From positions 1 through 26,480 of the forward strand of contig CAVQGX010000069.1 in assembly GCA_963712115.1 (NCBI GenBank): DNA of 26,480 nucleotides, given 5' to 3'. The notes under the pieces were generated by a model, which did not search any database, had not been told where the DNA came from, and saw only the letters and a list, made by a program, of their open reading frames with translations. Within the stretch, counting starts at the first letter, position 1; each line of letters begins with the position of its first letter. Source of the stretch: an uncultured delta proteobacterium (GTDB taxonomy: Bacteria > Desulfobacterota > Syntrophobacteria > BM002). The position numbers and the translations under genes are program-made. Shown here one piece after another: positions 9,668 to 21,023 of this stretch.

Positions 9668-9721
9668 GAAGGGCGGTCATATCTGCGGTGGGAGCAGCCG
9701 ATTCGTGAATTATCCGGGCTA
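9668..9721 (+). repeat. Truncated (right-end only) copy of the 184-nt palindromic element
   Basis: GAAGGGCGGTCATATCTGCGGTGGGAGCAGCCGATTCGTGAATTATCCGGGCTA aligns with the right ends of the full copies. Confidence 0.8.
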
Positions 9722-9771
9722 CAGCCGATGGAGAGTTTGTTTGGATTAGATGTGCTCCAGCCTTTACTAAA

Positions 9772-10008
9772 CTACTTCAATCTCTTGTTGAATTCCTCCA
9801 CTTTCTTCTCAAGGTTGCTGACCACGCTTCTGACCTTGTTCAAGACTGCTGCTGCCTTCTGGTCGTCCACCGAGGCCGGGTCAACCCCGCTTATGGCTTC
9901 TCCAATCTCTGTAACCGCCTCACTGAGAAGAATATTTAGCTGCTCGGCGGCTTCCAGCTGTTTCTGCATCAAAATAATATCCTGAACTGTAAGTGTGCGT
10001 TGTGACAC
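9772..10008 (-). CDS. Small helical/coiled-coil hypothetical protein (78 aa)
   Basis: GGGAG RBS before GTG, amphipathic helical sequence, co-oriented with its neighbours. Confidence 0.65.
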   Translation of the reverse strand: MSQRTLTVQDIILMQKQLEAAEQLNILLSEAVTEIGEAISGVDPASVDDQKAAAVLNKVRSVVSNLEKKVEEFNKRLK

Positions 10009-10127
10009 AGTCGGCTCCCTTTATAGATTAGTAGCTAGGAGTCTGGTGGGCTGGAAATCTTGTTTAGATTGTGGCTAATGGATACCTTAGCACATGTAAG
10101 TAGAATTGGTCAAAAGAGATTTGTGGC

Positions 10128-10311
10128 TAGCCCGGGCATATCATGAATTGTCGTCGGGAGACCGTGAAGATGGACGGGCCACCAGGCAACCGCAGGGGGT
10201 TGGACCCGAGGCGTACCTAAATGGTACGTCGCAGGGTTCGGCACCCGAGGACGCCTGGAAGGCCGGCCATATCCTCGGTCGCAGCAGACGATTCATGATA
10301 TGTCCGGGCTA
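10128..10311 (+). mobile_element. 184-nt rod-like palindromic element (MITE/REPIN-like), copy 1
   Basis: TIR TAGCCCGGGCATATCATGAAT / ATTCATGATATGTCCGGGCTA; central CGTACC-N5-GGTACG hairpin. The right end overlaps the TAG of the hybrid kinase. Confidence 0.9.
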
Positions 10312-12759
10312 ATCTCGATCCAGAACTTCCCGCACAACATTCAACATCTGTCTGATGTCATAGGGCTTGCTAACAAAGCCCTTAGCCCCGTTTCTCAGGA
10401 TTTCTCTGGTGGGCCCATCGGGGGAGTAGCCGCTGGCAATGGCTACCCTTGCTTCAGGGTTGACTTTCAAAAGCTCTAGGAGGCAGCGTTTGCCCCCCAT
10501 GCCTGGCATTATTAGATCTAGAATTACCAGGGCAATCTTGTCGCGCTCTTCTTGGTAGAGCTGTAAACCGCTCTCGCCGTCAGCAGCGGTGAGAACTGTG
10601 TAGCCAAATTCCTCAAGGATCTGAGCGCCAAGGATGCGAATTGGTTCCTCGTCGTCCACCAAAAGAATGGTCTCTGTGCCCCCTCGAGAAATGGTTGCCG
10701 CCTCCTGTGGTCTGACAATTTTGCCCATAAACTCGATGGCTGGGAGATAAATCTTGAAGGTGGTGCCCTCAGCCGGTTCACTGTAGCAGGTTATGTGGCC
10801 GTTGTGGCTTTTGACAATTCCATAAACCGTGGCCAGACCAAGGCCGGTGCCTCTACCGGTTTCTTTGGTTGTATAGAAGGGTTCAAAGATGTGTTCTAAG
10901 GTCTTTCTGTTCATGCCGTGACCGGTATCGGAGACTGTAAGCTGGACATATTCACCGGGTTGGGCCAGGTGATGCATCATGCAGTAGTTCTCATCCAGAG
11001 TCACATTAGCCGTTTCGACAATGAACTTACCCCCCTCTGGCATGGCATCCTTGGCATTTACCGCTAAGTTCATCAGGATTTGCTCCACCTGTCCAGGGTC
11101 TGCGTTGACGATTTTGAGGTCCTCGGCCAGACGGAACTCCATATGGATCATCTTGGGAATAGTCCTCTCTAACAATAGCCTCACACTCTCCACTTCGTGG
11201 TTCAGGTCAATGGGGCGCAGTTCGCTTTCTACTTTGCGACTGAAGGTGAGTAACTGTTGAGTGAGATCCGCCCCTCTTTCGGCGGCTCGAATAATTTGAC
11301 TGAGTTCTCGCTGACCAGAGTCTTCCTTGCCTTTTCTCATTTGAAGCAACTGGGCATAGCCCTGAACCGCTTGCAGCAGGTTGTTGAAGTCGTGGGCAAT
11401 GCCGCCGGCGAGGGTTCCTACAGCTTCCATCTTCTGAGCCTGACGGAACTGGGCCTGCATTTGTTCTTTTTCCTTTTCCGCCTCCTTGCGCTCAGTGATA
11501 TCTCGAGCGAAGGCACAGTTGTATTCTTTTCCCTTGAATTCGAGGTAATTTACCGTTATCTCCACAGGGAAGATCCTTCCACCTTTGGTACGATGTTGGG
11601 ATTCGATTATGAATGAACCTTTTGCTCTAACCTCCTTCCAATGTTCTGCCCACACAGCCACGGGAAAGCTCGGATCTATGTCATGCACCGTCATGGAGAG
11701 CAGTTCGTCCGGCGAGTAACCGAGAGATGAGCAAGCTGCATCATTGACAAAGATAAATCTCGCATCAGACCCCATCCAGAACACGGCGTCTCCAGCGTTG
11801 TCAACGGAAAACTGCGTAAGCCTGAGGGTTTCTTCAACCCTTTTGCGCTCGTAAATCTCAGCCCGCAATTCCTCATTGATGAGAGAAAGTTCAGCAGTCT
11901 TAGCCTTTACCTGCGCCCTCAAGATCAGGCCCGTTCCCAAAAACAGCACGATTAATCCGCCTGCCAATGCCAATAACGGTACGAACCATCTTGGCAATGT
12001 CCAGTGGGCATTTTGGGGTGTCCATTTGTCCAGTGATTGATGGTAGATCGATCCTTTGTCTGCTTTCAAGGGTGCCAGATGTTTGTCTATGGCACGGATA
12101 AGTTCGCCGTGCTTTTTCTTTGGCACGGCAAAATGGATATCTGCTGGACTTAGGATAATAGGGCTTCTACTTACCTTGTTGTATTTTTCAAATTCTAAAC
12201 CATATAATCGATCTATAACTCCAGCATCAACTCTTTTGCTGGAAACTAATTCCAGAACAGCATCATATTCGTAAGCTTCTATAAATCTACATTTGAGCTT
12301 GAATTGTTCAGCAAGTTTTCTGAGATTGTAATAATGTATGTCGTTATGAACAACTGCTATCTTTTTATTATCCAAATTGACTATCTGATTTATGTCAGAT
12401 TTTTTTTGAGTATAGATAATGCCCCAATCTGAAGATACATTTTCGTAGGTGAAGTCATATACTTTATTTCTTGCTCTCGAGTATTCGATGCCAACCAATA
12501 GATCGATCTCTTCCCTCTCGAGCCTCTCAAGACAATCTGTCAAGCTGCCCGGGACATAGTCTATTTTCCACTTCTCTTTGGAGCTGATGTACTCGAGGAT
12601 ATCAATGAGAAAGCCTTCCACCTTACCGTCATTTCCCACGGATACCAGTGGATAGTTGTCATAGACTCCTACCCTCAGCTGTTTATTACCGTGAACAGGA
12701 TGGGGGAGAGCAAGTTGTAAAATGACGATACAAAACAATACAAGTATGGACTTCCCCAT
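10309..12759 (-). CDS. Hybrid sensor histidine kinase/response regulator (periplasmic SBP family 3 - TM - PAS - HisKA - HATPase - REC), 816 aa
   Basis: LRVGVYDNYPL binding-protein domain, TM helix, PAS, LAGGIAHDFNNLL, NLAVNAKDAM, FEPFYTTK..GRGTGLGL, ILLVDDEE..ILDLIMP. ATG 12759 has an RBS and signal peptide; the longer ORF-track start runs through a repeat. Confidence 0.95.
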   Translation of the reverse strand: MGKSILVLFCIVILQLALPHPVHGNKQLRVGVYDNYPLVSVGNDGKVEGFLIDILEYISSKEKWKIDYVPGSLTDCLERLEREEIDLLVGIEYSRARNKVYDFTYENVSSDWGIIYTQKKSDINQIVNLDNKKIAVVHNDIHYYNLRKLAEQFKLKCRFIEAYEYDAVLELVSSKRVDAGVIDRLYGLEFEKYNKVSRSPIILSPADIHFAVPKKKHGELIRAIDKHLAPLKADKGSIYHQSLDKWTPQNAHWTLPRWFVPLLALAGGLIVLFLGTGLILRAQVKAKTAELSLINEELRAEIYERKRVEETLRLTQFSVDNAGDAVFWMGSDARFIFVNDAACSSLGYSPDELLSMTVHDIDPSFPVAVWAEHWKEVRAKGSFIIESQHRTKGGRIFPVEITVNYLEFKGKEYNCAFARDITERKEAEKEKEQMQAQFRQAQKMEAVGTLAGGIAHDFNNLLQAVQGYAQLLQMRKGKEDSGQRELSQIIRAAERGADLTQQLLTFSRKVESELRPIDLNHEVESVRLLLERTIPKMIHMEFRLAEDLKIVNADPGQVEQILMNLAVNAKDAMPEGGKFIVETANVTLDENYCMMHHLAQPGEYVQLTVSDTGHGMNRKTLEHIFEPFYTTKETGRGTGLGLATVYGIVKSHNGHITCYSEPAEGTTFKIYLPAIEFMGKIVRPQEAATISRGGTETILLVDDEEPIRILGAQILEEFGYTVLTAADGESGLQLYQEERDKIALVILDLIMPGMGGKRCLLELLKVNPEARVAIASGYSPDGPTREILRNGAKGFVSKPYDIRQMLNVVREVLDRD

Positions 12760-12797
12760 GGACCCCTCTTTTGGTCGAATGGCAGTCTTTACTTTTT

Positions 12798-12992
12798 TAA
12801 CCCGGATATTTAATGAATTGCCGTCGGGAGACCACGAAGATGGGCGTGCCACCTGGCAACCGTCCCGCGGTAGCGCGGGATTGGTCCCGAGGCGTACCTG
12901 AACGGTACGTCGCAGGGGCCGACACCCGAGTACGCCAGGAAGGACGGCCATATCCGTGGTCGCAGCAGGTGATTCATCAAATATCCGGGTTA
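12798..12992 (+). mobile_element. Palindromic element copy 2 (195 nt, with an extra internal hairpin)
   Basis: TIR TAACCCGGATATTTAATGAAT / ATTCATCAAATATCCGGGTTA; internal TCCCGCG-GTAG-CGCGGGA at 12863-12880. Confidence 0.9.
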
Positions 12993-13016
12993 GGTGAGAT
13001 AACTTGAAGAGATCTA

Positions 13017-13031
13017 GCATGTTCCATGCCA
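13017..13031 (-). promoter_or_regulatory. Candidate sigma54 promoter for the hybrid kinase
   Basis: TGGCAT-GGAAC-ATGC with correct GG-N10-GC spacing. Confidence 0.55.
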
Positions 13032-13085
13032 GCAGAGACCATGAGACGCCCAGTAAAATCGTTGCCTTTTATAAAGGGGCACTCG

Positions 13086-13138
13086 CCCTGTTAAATTCCG
13101 ACCATAGGCGGACCCTGCGAAGCAGTAATTTAACAGGG
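13086..13138. repeat. Short palindromic REP-like element with internal mini-hairpins; may also terminate thiL
   Basis: Perfect 12-bp IR CCCTGTTAAATT / AATTTAACAGGG enclosing CCG..CGG and CTGC-GAA-GCAG hairpins. Confidence 0.7.
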
Positions 13139-13180
13139 TAAAGGGGATTTCAATCTTTGGTAGGGAGCAGAAAGAGTTGG

Positions 13181-14176
13181 CTATTTAAAATGATCCCATC
13201 CGCTCGCTCCGATCGTCTCAAGGGAATTTTCCCTGGTCCTGAGTTTCAAACCAGGTTCGGCTACCATATGCCCTATCTGGTAGAATTCGCACCCCTCGGA
13301 CTCCAGAGCCGCTCGAAGATCTGCGGCCAAGCCTGGAACCACTGTCCCCAGCAGGACATAGTCCTCTCCTACATGGAGCGAAAGATGGTTTGAGTCTTCA
13401 TGGAATCTGCTACAGTAGTCCCTAAACTTCTCGGTGGTGGGGATCATTCTCTCTTCGACGATGGCACCTAGCTTTGATTCTCTGCAGATGTGACCTAGGT
13501 CTGCGGCAACACCGTCTGACACATCAATCAAGGAGTGGGCCATCTTCATGCTTGCAATGATGCGGCCCGCTTTTACGTGGGGATAGGGGTTATGATGAGC
13601 CTCTATCAGATCCTCCCATCCCTCGATCTCTCTTCCCTTTAGGATCAGGTCAAGACCTGCAGCCGAAGAGCCCACGGGCCCAGTTAGAAAAATCAAGTCT
13701 CCTTTGCCGGCCCCGGATCTATAGAGAATCTCATCCTCTATAGCTTCACCCACGAGGGCAATGTTGATCACCAAGTGTTCTGGAGATGAAGTGGTGTCAC
13801 CCCCTAGGAGATTCACCTCAAATTCTTTTGCCATAGATTTCATGCCATCGTAAATACCATCTAAAACTGCTAAATCTACCTTATCGGGGATGGCAATGGA
13901 GATTACCGCCTCCCTTGGAGTCCCGCCCATTGCGGCGATGTCGGATAAGTTGACCGCCAACGACTTTCTCCCAAGTTCGTAAGGGGATATCGCGCTTAAG
14001 AGGAAGTGAATCTTCTCCACCAGCATGTCGGTTGTCAGCAGGATGGCCATTTCCCCGGAGGTCTTGAACACGGAGCAATCATCTCCAATCCCTCGAATGA
14101 CGTTTCCGTCTCTAATAAGACAGCCCCTCTCGATCCGCTTAATAAAACCGAATTCACCAATGTCTTTTAGTTTCAC
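13181..14176 (-). CDS. thiL: Thiamine-monophosphate kinase
   Basis: IGEFGFI, GIGDDC, TTDMLVE..HF, AVNLSDIAAMGG, GGDTT, IDVSDG, GEDYVL and GWDHF motifs. Confidence 0.97.
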   Translation of the reverse strand: MKLKDIGEFGFIKRIERGCLIRDGNVIRGIGDDCSVFKTSGEMAILLTTDMLVEKIHFLLSAISPYELGRKSLAVNLSDIAAMGGTPREAVISIAIPDKVDLAVLDGIYDGMKSMAKEFEVNLLGGDTTSSPEHLVINIALVGEAIEDEILYRSGAGKGDLIFLTGPVGSSAAGLDLILKGREIEGWEDLIEAHHNPYPHVKAGRIIASMKMAHSLIDVSDGVAADLGHICRESKLGAIVEERMIPTTEKFRDYCSRFHEDSNHLSLHVGEDYVLLGTVVPGLAADLRAALESEGCEFYQIGHMVAEPGLKLRTRENSLETIGASGWDHFK

Positions 14177-14234
14177 TGCACCCTCACTGCTCTATACCTT
14201 TTGATGGATTCACCCTACCGCTTCCTTGGCCAAG

Positions 14235-14369
14235 GATGTGTGATGTGAGATTTGAGATGTGGAATTATCCGGCTACCTCGTCAACTTTTTCCCATCTCAC
14301 ATGGAACATCGCACATTCTACATCAGGTATTTTACTCTTTTTAGTGCCTAGTTCTTAGTGTCTAGTGCC
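14235..14369. repeat. Heptamer tandem arrays: (GATGTGA)x4 / (TCACATC)x5 inverted pair, plus (TAGTGCC)x4
   Basis: Degenerate period-7 units at 14235-14262, their reverse complement at 14290-14324, and a second unit type at 14342-14369. Confidence 0.8.
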
Positions 14370-14405
14370 TAAGTGGCTGCTGGTAACTGACTGCCTCTTG
14401 CCTAG

Positions 14406-15053
14406 TTACAGCCCCTTCGCCCTCATGACTTCTTTTTTGATCGCTTCGGCGGCTGCTCTCGGATTCTCCCGCGAACATATAGCGGAGACCACTGCAACCC
14501 CGTCCAACCCGGCCTTGACCGCCTCGTATGCGTTGGATTCGCTCATTGAACCAATCCCCACAACAGGGATTTTCACCGCTTCCTTTAAAAGATGTATACC
14601 TTTTATGCCTAGGTGCTGGGTAAGCTCCGGTTTGGTTTCTGTTACGAATATGGGCGACAAGCCCAAATAGTCGGCTCCCAATGCCTCTGCTATTTTAGCC
14701 TCCTCCGGCGTGAATACCGAAGCACCGATGATCTTTTGTGGCCCGAGTATCTTCCGGGCTGCGTCGATCGGCATGTCTTCCTGGCCTAAGTGTACGCCTT
14801 CAGCATCCAAGGCAAGAGCCATGTCGATTCGGTCATTTATGATCAGGGGTATATCTCTGGCTTTCAAATAAGCTCTTATCTTTAAACCTTCTTGGTAAAA
14901 CTCTTTGGTAGTTGCCTCTTTTTCTCTGAGCTGAACGAGAGTAACCCCCCCTCTCACTGCCGCCTGAATGACCTCAAGATTGCTGCGGCCAAGGGAGAGA
15001 GCTCTATCTGTCACCAGATATAGGGAGTAATCCACTTTCTTTTTATCATACAT
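14406..15053 (-). CDS. thiE: Thiamine-phosphate synthase
   Basis: LYLVTD, GGVTLVQLREK, LIINDRID, GVHLGQEDM, GADYLG, TETK and AVVSAI motifs. ATG 15053 chosen as the start. Confidence 0.97.
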   Translation of the reverse strand: MYDKKKVDYSLYLVTDRALSLGRSNLEVIQAAVRGGVTLVQLREKEATTKEFYQEGLKIRAYLKARDIPLIINDRIDMALALDAEGVHLGQEDMPIDAARKILGPQKIIGASVFTPEEAKIAEALGADYLGLSPIFVTETKPELTQHLGIKGIHLLKEAVKIPVVGIGSMSESNAYEAVKAGLDGVAVVSAICSRENPRAAAEAIKKEVMRAKGL

Positions 15054-15281
15054 TGCAATATCTGTGACCTCCTCTCGCCTTCCATGGTTTGAATCATTCC
15101 TTGACCTCTTCAAGATAGATCTTTAGCACTTCCCTCCTCCTTTCAGGGTGCAGCTCTCTATAGTTAATGATATATATTGCATTTATTGTCAAAACCCTAG
15201 GGCTCGGTTTCACTTGCAATCTACAACGTGTTTTTGTAAGTTTAGTGAAAAATCACTGGGGTTAACCTCGAAAAACCTCCT

Positions 15282-15923
15282 ATGGCTATATATTCAGAAG
15301 CAGAATTAGATGTAAAGGCGAAAGCGACTGTTTTTTCACTTGACCGTAATCTTGAGCGTACCAATGTTGTCAGGGAAATCTCCAATACCTACATCAGATT
15401 TTGTGAGACTTCAGAAGCAAAAAAGCGATTTATAAAACCCCGTAAAATCACTGAAGGAGTAGAGTTAAGACTTCTTTTTGAATCGCTTTGTTTTGCTATT
15501 TTTCTTACAACTAAAGTAACACCCAGGTATATTTCGACAAAAAGACTCATTATAAAGAAAGTAAATCATGAACTCGTGCGTTATTATAACGCCAGGGCTG
15601 CACAACATCTTATAAAACTATGCCACGATCTCGGTATGACCAAGCTAAGCGAGATCGTTTTAATTTCTTCATCCCCTGAAATTAAAATTAAGCATGGTGA
15701 TCCTTTACACCCCATGACGCGTCTAAAAGAATACTCGGAATGCCAGGGAAGAAAACGTGGAACAGAGGTACTACACTTTGGCAGAAACATAGGTAAGGCG
15801 CTTGACCCCTTCAATTGTCAAGCCCTTGAGACACTGTGGAGCGAGCTGGTGAAAACTCTGACCAAACTGACTGACAAAGTATTGAGTGAGGTCTTTAAGC
15901 CAACAGTCAAGCTGAGAGCATGA
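15282..15923 (+). CDS. Hypothetical protein (213 aa)
   Basis: Long ORF filling the gap, visibly more AT-rich than its neighbours, with no recognisable motif. Confidence 0.7.
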   Translation: MAIYSEAELDVKAKATVFSLDRNLERTNVVREISNTYIRFCETSEAKKRFIKPRKITEGVELRLLFESLCFAIFLTTKVTPRYISTKRLIIKKVNHELVRYYNARAAQHLIKLCHDLGMTKLSEIVLISSSPEIKIKHGDPLHPMTRLKEYSECQGRKRGTEVLHFGRNIGKALDPFNCQALETLWSELVKTLTKLTDKVLSEVFKPTVKLRA

Positions 15924-16097
15924 TCTCCACCTATTACCCTGGCATAGTAGTTGCAAAGTTTGTCATCCTTGACCAGTTTTGCCTCCATCAAATGAACAGT
16001 ATTGTACACTTCATAATTGCCGTCATTTCAACATTTTGTAGATTATTAATTGTTCTTGGGCACCGGGGTGGGGCTATAAAGCTACATCAATGGAGGT

Positions 16098-16481
16098 ATG
16101 ACTTTGGATACCAGTGAGTGGACTGAGACGCGAAAGCACCCAAGAAGTAAAGGTAGCTGGCCCGTAGTCATAATTACTGATCGAGGGGCCCTGATTGCAG
16201 AAACGAGAAACATAAGCCCTTTGGGAGCATTTATTTTCTGTGACCGCCCGCTTCCGGTCGAAGAAAAGATCCGGGTTCTCATCATGTTTCCCAATCAACG
16301 CTACCTGGATATCGCTGCCGAGGTAACATGGTCGTATCCCTACGGATCTTACAAAGACGATCCCCCTTGCGGTATGGGCGTGCGATTCACCGAGATCTCG
16401 AAGGCTGACCGGGATTTCATTTCTTCCTTGTCCTCGGGCTACCTGAAAACAGAACTCGAAAAAGGTACCTTCATAGATTAG
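16098..16481 (+). CDS. PilZ-domain protein (c-di-GMP receptor)
   Basis: RKHPR (RxxxR) and NISPLG ([D/N]xSxxG) motifs, AEVTW and GMGVRF. Confidence 0.9.
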   Translation: MTLDTSEWTETRKHPRSKGSWPVVIITDRGALIAETRNISPLGAFIFCDRPLPVEEKIRVLIMFPNQRYLDIAAEVTWSYPYGSYKDDPPCGMGVRFTEISKADRDFISSLSSGYLKTELEKGTFID

Positions 16482-16508
16482 CCGACTCATCATTGTTTTT
16501 TCATCATC

Positions 16509-16536
16509 TATCATTTCGCATCTCACATCTCACATA
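16509..16536. repeat. Heptamer array (TCACATC-like)x4
   Basis: TATCATT TCGCATC TCACATC TCACATA; same unit as at 14290-14324. Confidence 0.65.
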
Positions 16537-16547
16537 TTATTCTCTCT

Positions 16548-16731
16548 TAACCCGGATATTTCCTGAATTGCTGTCGCGAGACCGCGAAGATGGGCGTGCC
16601 ACCTGGCAACCGGAGGGTGTTGGTCCCGAGGCGTACCTGAACGGTACGTCGCAGGGGCCGACACCCGAGGACGCCTGGAAGGACGGCCATATCCGTGGTC
16701 GCAGCAGGTGATTCAGAAAATATCCGGGTTA
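16548..16731 (+). mobile_element. Palindromic element copy 3 (184 nt)
   Basis: TIR TAACCCGGATATTTCCTGAAT / ATTCAGAAAATATCCGGGTTA. The right end overlaps the TAA of thiM. Confidence 0.9.
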
Positions 16732-17529
16732 GCCCTCTTGCAAACGCGCCTTCTCTTGGAACTCCTGAGGGGTAATCTCGTGGAGTGCATCTAGCAGCGA
16801 TACTACGAAGGACCCAGGAGAATTCGCCTTTGCCCCAGCAAGCTCTCCCGCCAGGCCGAAAAATGCGAGACCAGCTGCTGCGGCTTCAAGGGAGTCACTT
16901 GTAATGCTAATGAAGGCTGCGATTGCTGCCGTTGCAGCGCATCCGGTACCAGTCACCAAACCGAGAAGGGGGTGACCGTTATAGCAGCGAATGACTCTCT
17001 CGCCGTCAGTAACTAAGTCCACGGGACCGGTGATGGCGGCAACCGAGTCGATCTCCTTGGCCACCGTCTTTGCGGCCTCAAGGGCCTCTTCTGCTCCATG
17101 GGCCGTTTCCACTCCTTTGGTTCTTACATAATCAGAACCGATGGAGAGGATTTCCGAAGGGTTGCCCCGCACCACGCTTAGTTTCAGTTCTTTTATTAGA
17201 GTCCTGAAAGCATGGGTTCGAAAAGACGTCGCCCCAGAGCCCACCGGATCCAAAACAACCGGCAGCCCGAGTTCGTTCGCCTTTTTCCCAGCCTTTAGCA
17301 TTGATTCAAGCCATTGCTTCGAGAGTGTGCCGATGTTTATCACCAATGCGCCAGCAAGGGAAACCATCTCCTCCACCTCGTCAACAGCATGAGCCATGAC
17401 CGGCGAAGCTCCCATGGCAAGAAGAGTGTTGGCAGTGAAGTTCATAACCACGTAATTGGTTATGTTATGGACCAGAGGCCTCTTTTCCCTGAGCTTTTCC
17501 AACAACGACTTCAAGTCATAATCAACCAT
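16729..17529 (-). CDS. thiM: Hydroxyethylthiazole kinase
   Basis: PLVHNITNYVVMNFTANTLLAMGASPVMA, INIGTL, VLDPVG, RGNPSEI and VTGTGC motifs. ATG 17529 has a GGAG RBS. Confidence 0.97.
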   Translation of the reverse strand: MVDYDLKSLLEKLREKRPLVHNITNYVVMNFTANTLLAMGASPVMAHAVDEVEEMVSLAGALVINIGTLSKQWLESMLKAGKKANELGLPVVLDPVGSGATSFRTHAFRTLIKELKLSVVRGNPSEILSIGSDYVRTKGVETAHGAEEALEAAKTVAKEIDSVAAITGPVDLVTDGERVIRCYNGHPLLGLVTGTGCAATAAIAAFISITSDSLEAAAAGLAFFGLAGELAGAKANSPGSFVVSLLDALHEITPQEFQEKARLQEG

Positions 17530-17585
17530 TATTTTCTCCAATCATTGTGGCTTTGTATCTCTACAGGTCATACCAAACTGCATGG

Positions 17586-17684
17586 GGTGAGCGGTAAGCA
17601 GTAGGCGGTAAGCGGTTCAAAAAACCGTCCAACTTGCCAATCCCTTGCTTTCCTCTGCTTAGTGTTCACTGCTAACTGCTTACT
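17586..17684. repeat. Inverted heptamer arrays (GGTAAGC)x4 / (GCTTACT)x4
   Basis: GGTGAGC GGTAAGC AGTAGGC GGTAAGC at 17586-17613; GCTTAGT GTTCACT GCTAACT GCTTACT at 17657-17684. Confidence 0.8.
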
Positions 17685-17688
17685 AAAA

Positions 17689-18198
17689 TCACCATTTCTC
17701 ATATCTTACCAGTTCCGAAAGAGGCTTTCTTTTCTTGGCGGGGGGGTTATCAGCTGCGTAGCCAAGGGGAGTGAAGGCTATCGGTTCAACCCCTTCAGGC
17801 AAGCTCAAAACCTCCTTGGCTGTCGCAGGATTAAAAGCCCCGATCCAGCAGGTCCCAAGCCCTTCGGCGGTAGCAGCCAGGATCACATGATCCATGACAA
17901 TGGCAACATCCACGTCGTTGTAATTCTTACCGTCTTTCCTCACCCAGTTTTTGCCGGGAATACCGCAAGCGCAGATGACCATCGGGGGTTGGACAAACCA
18001 TTTTTTATTGTAAATCTGCAACAACTCGGCTTCGCGACCTGCCGTGTGGATGACAAGCAATTGGAAAGGTTGGATATTCACCGCTGTTGGTGCCAACCGC
18101 GCAGCCTCGAGAATTCGCTCTAGCTTTCCTTTTTCCACCGGATCTCTTTTATAAGATCGCACGCTGTATCTTTTTCGGGCCAGCTCTAGAAAGTCCAT
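17689..18198 (-). CDS. Nitroreductase family protein
   Basis: KRYSVRSY, EAARLAPTAVNIQP, LAATAEGLGTCWIGAF, LGY and RKPLSELV motifs. Confidence 0.95.
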   Translation of the reverse strand: MDFLELARKRYSVRSYKRDPVEKGKLERILEAARLAPTAVNIQPFQLLVIHTAGREAELLQIYNKKWFVQPPMVICACGIPGKNWVRKDGKNYNDVDVAIVMDHVILAATAEGLGTCWIGAFNPATAKEVLSLPEGVEPIAFTPLGYAADNPPAKKRKPLSELVRYEKW

Positions 18199-18256
18199 AA
18201 TTAATTTCTCCTGGTCACTTGTCTTTATTTGCCTAACACTTTTATAGCCTAAAGTG

Positions 18257-18307
18257 CCCTCCCCCTAGTCGGAGATCCCGCTGCAGTTTAGCGCGGACGG
18301 GGGAGGG
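18257..18307. repeat. Short palindromic element with nested hairpin
   Basis: CCCTCCCCC / GGGGGAGGG 9-bp IR enclosing an imperfect CCGCT..TAGCGCGG hairpin. Confidence 0.55.
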
Positions 18308-18466
18308 GTAACTATTTCCAGTTCCGGGGTTCGAAGGGTACTTTGAGAGCTAGAATGCTTGACTCTTAACAAAAGGATATTATCTTTGCAAGTGTACCTG
18401 TTTTGGGCGAAGCCCTTTAACCCAATTTTTGAATTTCAACCTACGTCATAAACTATGCCAAAAATA

Positions 18467-18495
18467 TTGACTCGCAACTGGTTTCCGATTAAAAT
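18467..18495 (+). promoter_or_regulatory. sigma70-type promoter for the Cys-rich leader / DUF2318 operon
   Basis: TTGACT-N17-TAAAAT. Confidence 0.65.
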
Positions 18496-18504
18496 ACTAG
18501 GTAA

Positions 18505-18915
18505 TTGAATCTGAGGAGAGTAATCCCTTTGTTGCGACAATCATTTGGGAAGATAATAACACTGGTGATCGCAATCTCCTTGCTCACCGGAGGTCTTGCA
18601 CCTGCCAACTCCAGATGCACAGCTCAGTGCTGTGTACAGGTTAAGGCACCGGTTGCAGATCTAGTTGCTGATTGCTGCTCTGGCCACGAAACCGCTCCCT
18701 GCCCCCGTACGTTGGAATCCAGCTCTGAGTTCAAAGATTATGCTCCTTCCGCCGTGGCACCAAATGTAAGCCCTGCCACGGTGATGATTGCTGCAGCTTC
18801 AAACAACAAGTTAACCCTACCTCGATCTCATTCCCTTTTGGCTGCCATGAGGAGTCCCCAAATCAGAGGGCCAGGCGTGCCTATCTACCTTCTCACCGAA
18901 ACCTTCTTGATTTGA
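18505..18915 (+). CDS. Exported Cys-rich small protein, candidate metal-responsive leader peptide
   Basis: N-terminal hydrophobic segment, CxxxCC and CC-x6-C clusters, C-terminal RGPGVPIYLLTETFLI. Start may be TTG 18529, after GAGGAG at 18513-18518. Confidence 0.7.
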   Translation: MNLRRVIPLLRQSFGKIITLVIAISLLTGGLAPANSRCTAQCCVQVKAPVADLVADCCSGHETAPCPRTLESSSEFKDYAPSAVAPNVSPATVMIAAASNNKLTLPRSHSLLAAMRSPQIRGPGVPIYLLTETFLI

Positions 18916-19106
18916 TACTTACCTTTCAGTCCGCTGTATCTCCATTGCCGTTTAATGTTGTCCCCATTTAGGGGTCAGCCCTTTACTTAGTACATTTCTC
19001 GTCTCGAGAGCCGAGTCTTTCAGACGTCCTGGTCAATTGGCTTAGTCATGATGACAAAATTAGAATGACCCATGTCAAGGATGACCACATATTAAAGGAG
19101 TTTGTA

Positions 19107-19682
19107 ATGAGCAAGAAGAATAAGAAAAAAAATGTGGCGGAAAAGAGTGCTTCCAAAAAGGAAGCCATCCTCAAGACCGAAACAAAGAGCCAGTCACCCC
19201 TTCGAACCTTACTCGTTGTGGCGGTCGTGGTAATAGGAGGTTTGGCCTTTTACCTGTTTCAGTCCGGTTTTGACAGCAAGCCCCAAGCCCGAACACCTGC
19301 CATTCAACCTGAAGTCTCTGCCACCGAAGTCTCCTTCCCGCTGCAAGCCTTCGCCGATGGCCAAGCCCAATATTTTCAGTACCCCACCAGCAATGGTGTC
19401 ACTGTTCGTTTCTTCGTCCTGAGAAGTTCCGATGGGGTGGTCAGGGCGGCCTATGACGCCTGTGACGTATGCTGGCGGGAAGGGAAGGGTTACTACCAGG
19501 ATGGAGACTTTATGGTTTGTCGCAATTGCGGCCAACGATTCGCCTCCGTTAAGGTTAACGAAATAAAAGGTGGCTGCAACCCGGCACCTTTGGACCGGAC
19601 GGTTGTGGGTGACAAATTAGTTATAAAGATTGCCGACATAGTCCAGGGAAGCCAGTACTTTGACCTTGCCAAGAGGAGCTAA
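19107..19682 (+). CDS. DUF2318 (FtrD-like, Fe-S/Cys-rich) membrane-anchored protein
   Basis: RAAYDACDVC, GYYQDGD.MVCRNCG and GGCNPAPL motifs; single TM helix. ATG 19107 has an AAGGAG RBS. Confidence 0.9.
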   Translation: MSKKNKKKNVAEKSASKKEAILKTETKSQSPLRTLLVVAVVVIGGLAFYLFQSGFDSKPQARTPAIQPEVSATEVSFPLQAFADGQAQYFQYPTSNGVTVRFFVLRSSDGVVRAAYDACDVCWREGKGYYQDGDFMVCRNCGQRFASVKVNEIKGGCNPAPLDRTVVGDKLVIKIADIVQGSQYFDLAKRS

Positions 19683-19684
19683 GC

Positions 19685-20842
19685 ATGACACTTAAAGACA
19701 TTGCTCTGCGCAACATCAGGCGGCGTAAGGCAAAGGCTGGTTTTGTTCTCGCCGGGCTACTCATAGCGGTTTCCACGGCAGTGGCCCTCCTGGGCCTGAT
19801 CGAAGCGATGAACCGCGACATCCAAAAGAAACTGGAGGAGTATGGCGCCAACATTCTAATATTGCCGAGAACAGAAAATCTCTCCCTCACTTACGGAGGG
19901 CTTTCGTTGGGGGGAGTTTCCTTTGAAATGCAGGAAATTCGGCAGGCTGATCTAGTCAGGGTAAAAGCCATCAAGAACGCTGCCAATGTAGCTGCAATGG
20001 GGCCCACGGTTCTCGGTGCTATCGAGGTGGACGACCGCAAGGTGCTTCTTGCCGGGGTCGACTTTCAGGCCACAAAGATCTTAAAGCCCTGGTGGCAAGT
20101 GGTGGGCACCGTTCCAAGCGATTTTGGTGTCCTCCTGGGATCCGAAGCAGCTCGCATTTTGGCACTGGGAACCGGAGATCACTTCAAGGTCAACGGCAGT
20201 GAACTCCAGGTGTCGGGTTTACTGGCACCCACCGGCTCTCAAGATGACCATCTCGTCTTCGCCCGCCTTGATACGGCCCAGTCCCTTCTGCACAAGCAAG
20301 GGCGGGTCTCCATGGTCGAGGTGGCAGCCCTTTGCACTGCCTGCCCCATTGAAGCGATGGTGAGTCAAATATCCAGGGCCCTTCCTGGCACTAAAGTTAT
20401 GGCAATTCAACAGGTGGTGCAGGGCCGCATGGAAACTCTGGACCATTTCAGAAAATTCTCCTACGGAGTCGCGGTCGTGCTGGTGCTGGTAGGCAGCCTC
20501 GTGGTTCTGGTGACCATGATGGGAAGCGTGAGAGAGCGGACTGCCGAGATCGGCATTTTCCGGGCAATGGGGTTTAGGCGGAGCCACGTGATCCGAATAG
20601 TCCTTTTGGAGGCGGGGATAATCTCCGCCGTGGCTGGAGTTTTAGGCTACCTGATAGGCTTCGGTTCCACCAAGGTCGCCCTTCCCTTCTTTACCGGTGG
20701 CAACGGTATAGCGGTGATTTTCGATCCAGTGCTGGCAGCTGGGGCATTTGCGGCGGCCGTAATTATGGGCCTGGCCTCAAGTGTCTACCCGGCGCTTCTG
20801 GCGGCCCGAATCGACCCCTCTGACGCACTGCGGACTCTCTAG
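19685..20842 (+). CDS. ABC transporter permease, MacB/FtsX (type VII) family
   Basis: IALRNIRRRK, YGANILI, large periplasmic domain, SVRERTAEIGIFRAMGF, YPA..AARIDP.DALR. Confidence 0.93.
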   Translation: MTLKDIALRNIRRRKAKAGFVLAGLLIAVSTAVALLGLIEAMNRDIQKKLEEYGANILILPRTENLSLTYGGLSLGGVSFEMQEIRQADLVRVKAIKNAANVAAMGPTVLGAIEVDDRKVLLAGVDFQATKILKPWWQVVGTVPSDFGVLLGSEAARILALGTGDHFKVNGSELQVSGLLAPTGSQDDHLVFARLDTAQSLLHKQGRVSMVEVAALCTACPIEAMVSQISRALPGTKVMAIQQVVQGRMETLDHFRKFSYGVAVVLVLVGSLVVLVTMMGSVRERTAEIGIFRAMGFRRSHVIRIVLLEAGIISAVAGVLGYLIGFGSTKVALPFFTGGNGIAVIFDPVLAAGAFAAAVIMGLASSVYPALLAARIDPSDALRTL

Positions 20843-21023
20843 CTCGGATGTTTCGCGGATTGACGTCGCGAGACCGTGGAGAAGGGTGTGCCACCGGGCA
20901 ATCGCAGGGGGTTGGATCCGAGGCGTACTTGAAGAGTACGTCGCAGGGTCCAGCACCCGAGGACGACCGGAAGGACGGTCTGATCCACGGTCGCAGCAGC
21001 CCATTCGTGAATCATCCGGGCTA
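20840..21023 (+). mobile_element. Palindromic element copy 4 (184 nt, most diverged)
   Basis: TIR TAGCTCGGATGTTTCGCGGAT / ATTCGTGAATCATCCGGGCTA. It begins exactly with the permease stop codon TAG. Confidence 0.88.

Follow-up and report, generated by a model that had tools for sequence, protein, structure and literature searches.

The 26,480-nt stretch of DNA considered here (the window) is contig C69 of G000, the genome assembly of an uncultured deltaproteobacterium (4.9 Mb, 70 contigs, 48.9% G+C, 94% complete), and it carries several copies of a short repeat that folds into a rod. The repeats are best explained as a MITE (miniature inverted-repeat transposable element) of about 182 bp, flanked by a duplicated TA and mobilised in trans by a DDE transposase of the IS1380 family, a bacterial relative of piggyBac; the probability of this reading is put at about 0.8. 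The element has the features of a MITE: terminal inverted repeats (TIRs), a target duplication, empty sites, a short non-coding sequence in many copies, and an autonomous insertion sequence (IS) with the same ends. An original prediction made from the sequence of the window had called the repeats non-autonomous, which their absence of coding capacity, their TIRs, their dispersed copies and the empty sites bear out. It had also seen no cognate transposase in the window, and none was found there or in the rest of the assembly.

A profile built from the four full copies of the window gives 273 nhmmer hits in G000, which reduce to 175 non-overlapping loci. Ninety-seven of these are full length (95 distinct), and all but one of the 97 lie outside long open reading frames (ORFs), the remaining copy being inside one. 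Across the 97 full copies the TIRs read (TA)GCCCGGAT(A/G)TTTCATGAAT ... ATTCATGAAA(T/C)ATCCGGGC(TA). A search with NF033539 through 22 genomes of the same family identified a 444-aa transposase in a genome of the same genus (G015:C527, locus L145; 399 bits against a cut-off of 180, E 1.6e-119). Inverted copies of CCCGGATATTTCATGAAT, each adjoining CTAG, bound this gene at 348 and 1981, so that the IS measures 1634 bp. The sequence CCCGGATATTTCATGAAT equals the MITE termini at 18 of 18 nt, and the ends start CCCGG.

The same relationship extends to metagenomes. A scan with the L145 transposase returned 80 loci that encode relatives, and a script paired the two ends at 34 of them. Thirty-one of the 34 are ISs of about 1630-1640 bp starting CCCG..; the exceptions are two loci aligned 5 nt out (L162 and L205) and a chance pair at 1214 bp (L192). 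The ends of the metagenomic IS copies are the same as those of the MITE or variants of them, and the variants include CCCGGATTATTCATGAA, the end of the MITE subfamily found in a Terriglobia metagenome-assembled genome (MAG; phylum labels here are those of the MAG records, in which binning errors are possible). MITE subfamilies track these IS end variants. Only the first 16-18 nt or so are common to the IS left end, the IS right end and the MITE, and a comparison of the MITE and IS interiors gives no significant similarity (best local score 22; shuffled maximum 23-27). A 10-nt string, CGAGGACGCC, shared with the ribosome-binding region of the IS is within chance. The original prediction had said that it would be refuted by ends matching the TIRs of a known IS family together with internal covariation that lost significance in a larger alignment: the ends do match such a family, and the loss of covariation did not come true.

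Two other candidate partners were set aside. IS630-type elements also duplicate TA, and G000 contains five DDE_3 elements of the IS630/Tc1-mariner type; their ends, TATATATAGCGTC... and TAGTATTTAGTTGC..., are unrelated to those of the MITE. A pair of MITE-type ends 2351 nt apart in C19 encloses two ORFs of 144 and 134 aa, neither of transposase-like size, which from their sequence are putative MsrA/MsrB proteins.

Repeat search, reading of the sequences and alignment place four full copies and one end fragment in the window, all on the plus strand, in agreement with the coordinates, the single orientation and the three 184-nt lengths originally reported:

9668..9722, plus strand: solo 3' end fragment, the last 55 nt (model positions 133-187, nhmmer), ending ...ATCCGGGCTA

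10128..10311, plus strand: full copy 1, 184 nt including the TA at either end

12798..12992, plus strand: full copy 2, 195 nt, with a register match at 12809-12992 and an 11-nt extra hairpin

16548..16731, plus strand: full copy 3, 184 nt

20840..21023, plus strand: full copy 4, 184 nt, between an FtsX-like permease gene and an ABC ATPase gene (start 21040)

Every full copy spans TA to TA, and copies 1, 3 and 4 are exactly 184 nt when both TAs are counted. The extra hairpin of copy 2 is of the type CCCGCGG-TA-GCGCGGG, lies near model position ~66, and recurs as the same insert in other copies of the family.

Empty sites in related genomes, a check proposed at the outset, were found. Copies 1, 2 and 3 are all absent at the orthologous sites of G012, where the site of copy 1 (L139) holds a single TA. 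The cleanest pair is that of copy 3, which reads TTCTCTCT-TA-GCCCTC when empty (G012) and TTCTCTCT-TA-[ACCCGG...CCGGGT]-TA-GCCCTC when filled. The site of copy 4 is filled in G016, G012, G015 and G014, and is empty, with flank matches split or adjacent, in G002, G013, G006, G008, G007, G005, G018 and others; the empty junctions were read for G002, G013 and G006. Insertions in other MAGs have empty counterparts in G000, again with one TA. The element is thus flanked by TA on both sides where empty sites hold a single TA, and the flanks of 95 copies follow the pattern Y-TA...TA-R, which makes the target a YTAR site.

The choice of target has consequences for neighbouring genes. The element starts TA|G or TA|A and finishes C|TA or T|TA, and a stop codon whose TA serves as target is therefore restored as TAG or TAA. 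Three of the window copies are examples: bases 10309-10311 (CTA) of copy 1 are the TAG stop of a minus-strand hybrid histidine kinase ORF (10309-13020), bases 16729-16731 (TTA) of copy 3 form the TAA stop of thiM, a minus-strand gene for hydroxyethylthiazole kinase (16729-17541), and the first bases of copy 4, 20840-20842, are the TAG stop of the FtsX-like permease gene. Genome-wide, an element end overlaps 34 of 99 adjacent gene 3' ends, as judged from crude ORF-based gene calls.

The exact length of the duplication is less simple. The IS1380 family makes target duplications of 4-5 bp, and every empty site is compatible with a 2-bp as well as a 4-bp duplication. Identical 4-mers flank 15 of 95 MITE copies, as against 10 of 28 IS flank pairs (the latter read by eye). 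Five of these 10 IS pairs have non-palindromic 4-mers, which fit the 4-bp duplication expected of IS1380; five further IS flank pairs read TTAG...CTAA. In the MITE, the bases beside CCC/GGG are complementary between the two ends (G:C 68, A:T 17, G:T 6, A:C 0). These flank statistics agree neither with a strict 4-bp duplication nor with old flanks being carried over at random, and a hairpin-dependent step, which is speculation, would fit the MITE pattern.

Some sites retain only the ends of the element. At the site orthologous to copy 2, G016 (L134/L138) has a remnant of about 30 nt in which the ends meet, CCCGGATTTTTCA-CC-AATCCGGGC, and G000 contains sixteen end pairs less than 100 nt apart. 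Together these point to internal deletions that leave only the two inverted repeats as a common event.

The family is patchily distributed, in keeping with a mobile element. A 20-base central pattern matched at least 113 stretches in a species-level genome collection; among the matches listed, the majority come from MAGs labelled Syntrophobacterales, Syntrophobacteria or 'Deltaproteobacteria' and several from one Terriglobia MAG, while six (in Streptomyces, Nocardioides and others) are chance matches with no similarity beyond the pattern. The element was matched in all 17 same-genus genomes searched and in one genome of another genus in the family, and R1, a model of the core of the element, matches 6 of 151 genomes of an even phylum sample at E <= 1e-8. 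Copies in a MAG labelled Alphaproteobacteria (L033, 196 bits) and in one labelled Acidimicrobiia (L069, 210 bits) are near-identical, score like those of this genus and come from the same sample series; binning contamination is likelier than true presence in those phyla.

The second part of the evidence concerns the fold. In computed folding, the plus strand of copy 10128 reaches -120.9 kcal/mol (z -12.2; equalled by 0 of 200 shuffles) and its minus strand -96.0 kcal/mol (z -6.9), and plus-strand folds are 24-36 kcal/mol more stable than minus-strand folds. The end-to-end fold originally described is thereby upheld, and the five covarying arm pairs listed with it are all present in the aligned copies. 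Covariation was counted in a set of 70 copies from several genomes (A2), with an RNAalifold consensus, 500 shuffles and partners slid by 1-3 columns as controls. Of 3473 cells, 96.1% pair (shuffled 90.1%; 0/500 as high), both sides have changed in 30 of 50 pairs (shuffled mean 13.6, 0/500 as high; slid 11-15), and there are 219 double-changed cells (shuffled 56.9; slid 17-29). The covariation is real and well beyond both controls, and the claim that structure is conserved while sequence drifts holds in these counts.

This covariation has more than one source. The outer helix is the inverted repeat itself, with double changes in 13 of its 16 pairs, and over the outermost 18 bp or so the two ends presumably covary because each has to fit the inverted repeat that the local IS variant recognises. 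Inner helices 3, 4, 6 and 7, outside the part in common with the IS, have double changes in 5/6, 7/9, 3/10 and 1/6 pairs, respectively. Copies from the Terriglobia MAG differ in sequence through several helices and keep the pairing. The motifs CGAGAC, GTACGTCGCAGGG, CCGAGGACG and GGTCGCAG, which lie in loops and bulges, are invariant or nearly so.

G:T, but not A:C, is tolerated on one strand. In 95 G000 copies and 72 pairs, the plus strand has 651 G:T cells versus 143 A:C cells, and parsimony on a 160-copy FastTree gives 308 events from Watson-Crick (WC) pairs to G:T versus 137 to A:C. Rates at unpaired columns (per site-branch, C>T 0.0189 vs G>A 0.0188; A>G 0.0133 vs T>C 0.0188) lack a matching mutational bias. 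The G-T character first noticed in the plus-strand mismatches of the window copies is supported by these counts. The same tree has 122 double WC-to-WC changes on single branches and, for several pairs, requires 8-16 switches back and forth between two pair types.

All size variants consist of extra hairpins at set points, near model positions 52, 66, 128 and 158, and in 13 copies a repeat-rich rod of about 170 nt is added at model position 61-77. This insert forms a side rod, with GCGGAAT/GCGGATT heptads in one arm and ATCCGAR heptads in the other; its carriers include C18:138263-138598, C27:88718-89042, C43:55878-56194 and ten more, and GCGGAATGCGGA occurs 23 times in the genome. A palindromic 16-mer, CCCGCGGTACCGCGGG, has 56 matches with both strands scanned, or about 28 loci. 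This number appears roughly equal to that of the carriers seen in the alignment, and the idea that the added hairpins are independent mini-elements was rejected.

The interior has a history of its own. It is about 135 nt long and unrelated to the IS, and core model R1 finds it under different ends: 136 times, counting both strands, in the Terriglobia MAG (G038), 9 times with IS1380-type ends in a Holophagae MAG (G037), and 11 and 13 times in two Acidobacteriota MAGs (G035 and G034). In the last two, some copies have diverged CCYGG...TCAYGA-type ends over the outer 25 nt and others have unrelated sequence there; ORF lists around the Acidobacteriota copies, drawn from high-GC DNA, gave no informative gene context. 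By sequence comparison, the interior appears older than the present MITE shell. At the FtsX/ABC site, the identity of five orthologous copies to the window copy is 91-96%, with 300-nt coding flanks at 71-90%; 24 pairs vary among the five, pairing persists throughout at 12, and double changes are seen at two. An orthologous pair at L098 has an identity of 0.914 in the element versus 0.823 in both flanks, and for L065 and C45 the values are 0.962 in the element versus 0.856 and 0.776 in the flanks. The filled or empty state does not track flank similarity, G014 being filled at 79% identity and G002 empty at 87-92%, so that re-insertion at a hot spot or precise excision could mimic conservation in place.

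A hairpin maintained by compensatory change in a MITE is unusual but not unprecedented. Perhaps only copies whose plus strand can fold keep producing new copies, and the favoured substrate of the transposase might be a folded single strand, or else a cruciform in which the two ends lie very near each other. A substrate of this kind would explain covariation in the helices, the tolerance of G:T but not of A:C, and the fact that the size variants are all hairpins.

Several observations weigh against mobilisation by an IS1380-family transposase as the full account. No IS with matching ends was found in G000 (94% complete, 70 contigs), and no MITE-type end pair in it encloses a transposase. With the cognate IS absent from the assembly, mobilisation is inferred from the identity of the ends and not seen. 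The IS1380 elements that G000 does possess (three NF033539 matches) have a different inverted repeat, CCCTAATGTTGCATAAAAATC, in which 13 of 21 positions are alike. The base beside CCC/GGG behaves as part of the inverted repeat or hairpin, which differs from the IS flanks. Maintenance at the level of RNA, or conversion between copies, could also account for the covariation. The 160-copy tree is weakly resolved and its event counts are upper bounds, and pairs with 11-16 inferred switches suggest recombination among copies, which would inflate them. Orientation shows no replichore-linked, two-domain pattern in the complete chromosome G018 (9 plus and 19 minus copies in the first half, 12 plus and 17 minus in the second; origin not located). 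Movement through a structured single strand is possible, and no evidence of a single-stranded intermediate was seen here.

It is conceivable, at rather low confidence, that the rod itself is a functional single-stranded nucleic acid, either as (a) a folded-strand or cruciform substrate or as (b) an RNA module that passes between shells. Under (a), the base of the hairpin, including the base beside CCC/GGG, may be the real substrate of IS1380/piggyBac-type transposases, which would explain the odd flanks, with their complementary inner base and 4-mers that are not duplicated. Under (b), a structured RNA module may be carried between MITE shells in MAGs labelled Desulfobacterota, Acidobacteriota and Holophagae.

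A related and unlikely explanation makes the interior a functional structured RNA carried as cargo in a MITE shell, with selection on the plus-strand transcript keeping its helices and invariant loops. The one-strand tolerance of G:T but not A:C, the more stable plus-strand folds, the invariant motifs in loops and bulges, and the persistence of the interior, under changing ends, in MAGs with different phylum labels are all consistent with such a cargo. So is the identity of orthologous copies, which exceeds that of their coding flanks at the FtsX/ABC site, with two double changes, and at a second site (91% vs 82%), although the filled and empty pattern means that re-insertion or precise excision could mimic this conservation. 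Four metatranscriptome libraries (Logan contigs) contain hundreds of contigs on the element, and in one library a contig joins 16550 to 16733 at copy 3; these contigs give neither strand nor ends, however, and DNA carry-over is possible. Positions 16492-16539 are without cover in three metatranscriptome runs, which is uninformative. In gaps between co-directional ORFs, the plus strand of the element is sense in only 22 of 63 cases and antisense in 41 (p about 0.02 by normal approximation, from crude ORF-based calls), so that host mRNAs mostly carry the weaker-folding strand; the 57 copies of G018 divide into 21 plus and 36 minus. Rfam 15, scanned with cmscan across the whole window (E <= 1), had nothing on the copies and one unrelated weak hit (sn1502, 23.9 bits vs a gathering score of 60). 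Selfish spread accounts better than a host gene for a patchy distribution (6/151 genomes) at about a hundred copies per genome. A precedent is the MITE-like bcr1 repeat of Bacillus, which is transcribed and shows compensatory changes (PMC3184786). The idea of a dispersed structured RNA, a free RNA gene, which the original prediction had also offered, gives way to a MITE with IS1380 ends, a TA duplication and empty sites.

It is quite improbable that the complementarity is unselected and a by-product of homogenisation, whether by mismatch repair of a hairpin or cruciform or by conversion or recombination among copies. The 8-16 switches per pair are more than independent double mutation easily gives and look like reassortment of a few alleles, and the pairs that vary among orthologous copies are those polymorphic in the family. 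Hairpin repair would, however, erase G:T pairs, yet T:G is present in 89 of 95 copies at pair 29-159 and G:T in 81 of 95 at pair 86-104; it would likewise erase asymmetric loops, and the asymmetric loop motifs are invariant. A contiguous conversion tract would split most pairs, which lie 100-170 nt apart, unless its ends were symmetric, and the Terriglobia-labelled subfamily differs in several helices and still pairs.

Movement by an HUH (Y1) transposase acting on single-stranded hairpins, as in REPIN/RAYT-like or IS200/IS605-like elements, is very hard to credit: the rod-like fold, the one-strand asymmetry and the four Y1_Tnp genes of G000 would suit it, but the element has true TIRs identical over 18/18 nt to those of a DDE IS1380-family IS and a TA/YTAR duplication, and no copy or end lies within about 1.5 kb flanks of any of the four Y1 genes. 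To our knowledge, HUH elements lack both TIRs and target duplications. The REPIN/HUH-like or unknown kind of element first suggested is accordingly not upheld, and the proposed check for a RAYT or TnpA gene flanked by the same ends came out negative for all four Y1 genes within those flanks.

The MITE resembles IS1380-family ISs in a TIR that starts CCC and agrees with the L145 IS at 18/18 nt, in a YTAR target with a central TA, and in frequent insertion at stop codons; it differs in having no transposase gene and an unrelated interior. The target of piggyBac is TTAA, and precise excision and hairpin intermediates are known for it. Like the non-autonomous piggyBac-superfamily elements of eukaryotes, the present element has CCC...GGG ends beside a TA-centred palindromic target and empty sites that keep a single target copy, and it differs in being bacterial and in a target relaxed to YTAR. 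The piggyBac transposase superfamily is paired with IS1380-like elements as its counterpart in prokaryotes (PMC5718144).

A structural parallel is bcr1 of the Bacillus cereus group, described as a MITE-like repeat of about 155 bp, with direct-repeat flanks and a variable distribution, that is transcribed and whose compensatory base changes keep a long double-stranded fold (PMC3184786). Compensatory change in a bacterial MITE-like repeat is therefore already known from bcr1, with which the present element shares the MITE-like form, the fold so kept and the variable genomic distribution. The two differ in phylum and ends, and bcr1 has 5-bp duplications and is reported as transcribed, whereas the present element has TA within YTAR and is seen in RNA-library contigs without strand; no IS partner of bcr1 is named in the portion available (PMC3184786). 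The noteworthy part here is a one-stranded structural constraint on a conserved interior.

Correia/NEMIS in Neisseria and ERIC in Enterobacteriaceae are small, TIR-bounded intergenic repeats that form hairpins in mRNA; Correia elements duplicate TA, and compensatory substitutions have been reported in ERIC. We know of no IS1380 partner for either. Their sequences and hosts are unrelated to those of the present element, whose interior of about 135 nt with invariant loops spans MAGs labelled as different phyla. A limited literature search (IS1380 with MITE, IS1380 with piggyBac, and MITE compensatory structure), in sources seen in part, turned up no description of the present family.

The element offers a clean case of different constraints on a structured interior and on a transposon shell whose ends match the local IS1380 variant. 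For annotation, about 100-130 copies per genome can now be labelled in this group of uncultured sediment bacteria, where many genes take their stop codon from the element, which also lies within operons and interrupts assemblies. IS1380-family elements mobilise resistance genes such as those adjoining ISEcp1, and one-strand G:T tolerance together with anomalous flanks gives a testable handle on the transposases of this family and on very short substrates. A folded-strand or cruciform substrate, if true, would mean that a DDE transposase can work in a new way; if the rod is a mere by-product, the element is ordinary selfish DNA.

Other features of the ISs were observed along the way. In L145 (348-442) and the aligned IS left ends, a conserved GGGCATC...GAGGATGCCC pairing is present in the IS 5' leader; judged from sequence, it would mask the transposase gene's ribosome-binding site and may exert translational control. 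G000 also has a second IS1380-family IS, in 99.9% identical copies at C9:16535-18081 and in C53 (L142, L143), with a 485-codon open frame, ends CCCTAATGTTGCATAAAAATC and 4-bp duplications TTAA and CTAA, and a third, broken copy in C5.

The genes of the window are ordinary by domain search and comprise a sigma-54 activator, hybrid kinases, ThiM and the FtsX/ABC pair. In the roughly 400 nt between the end fragment and copy 1 (9723-10127), the minus strand appears to encode a coiled-coil-like protein of about 85 codons. Directly after copy 2, the region 12993-13180 contains an imperfect palindrome, GCCCTGTTAAATT...AATTTAACAGGG.

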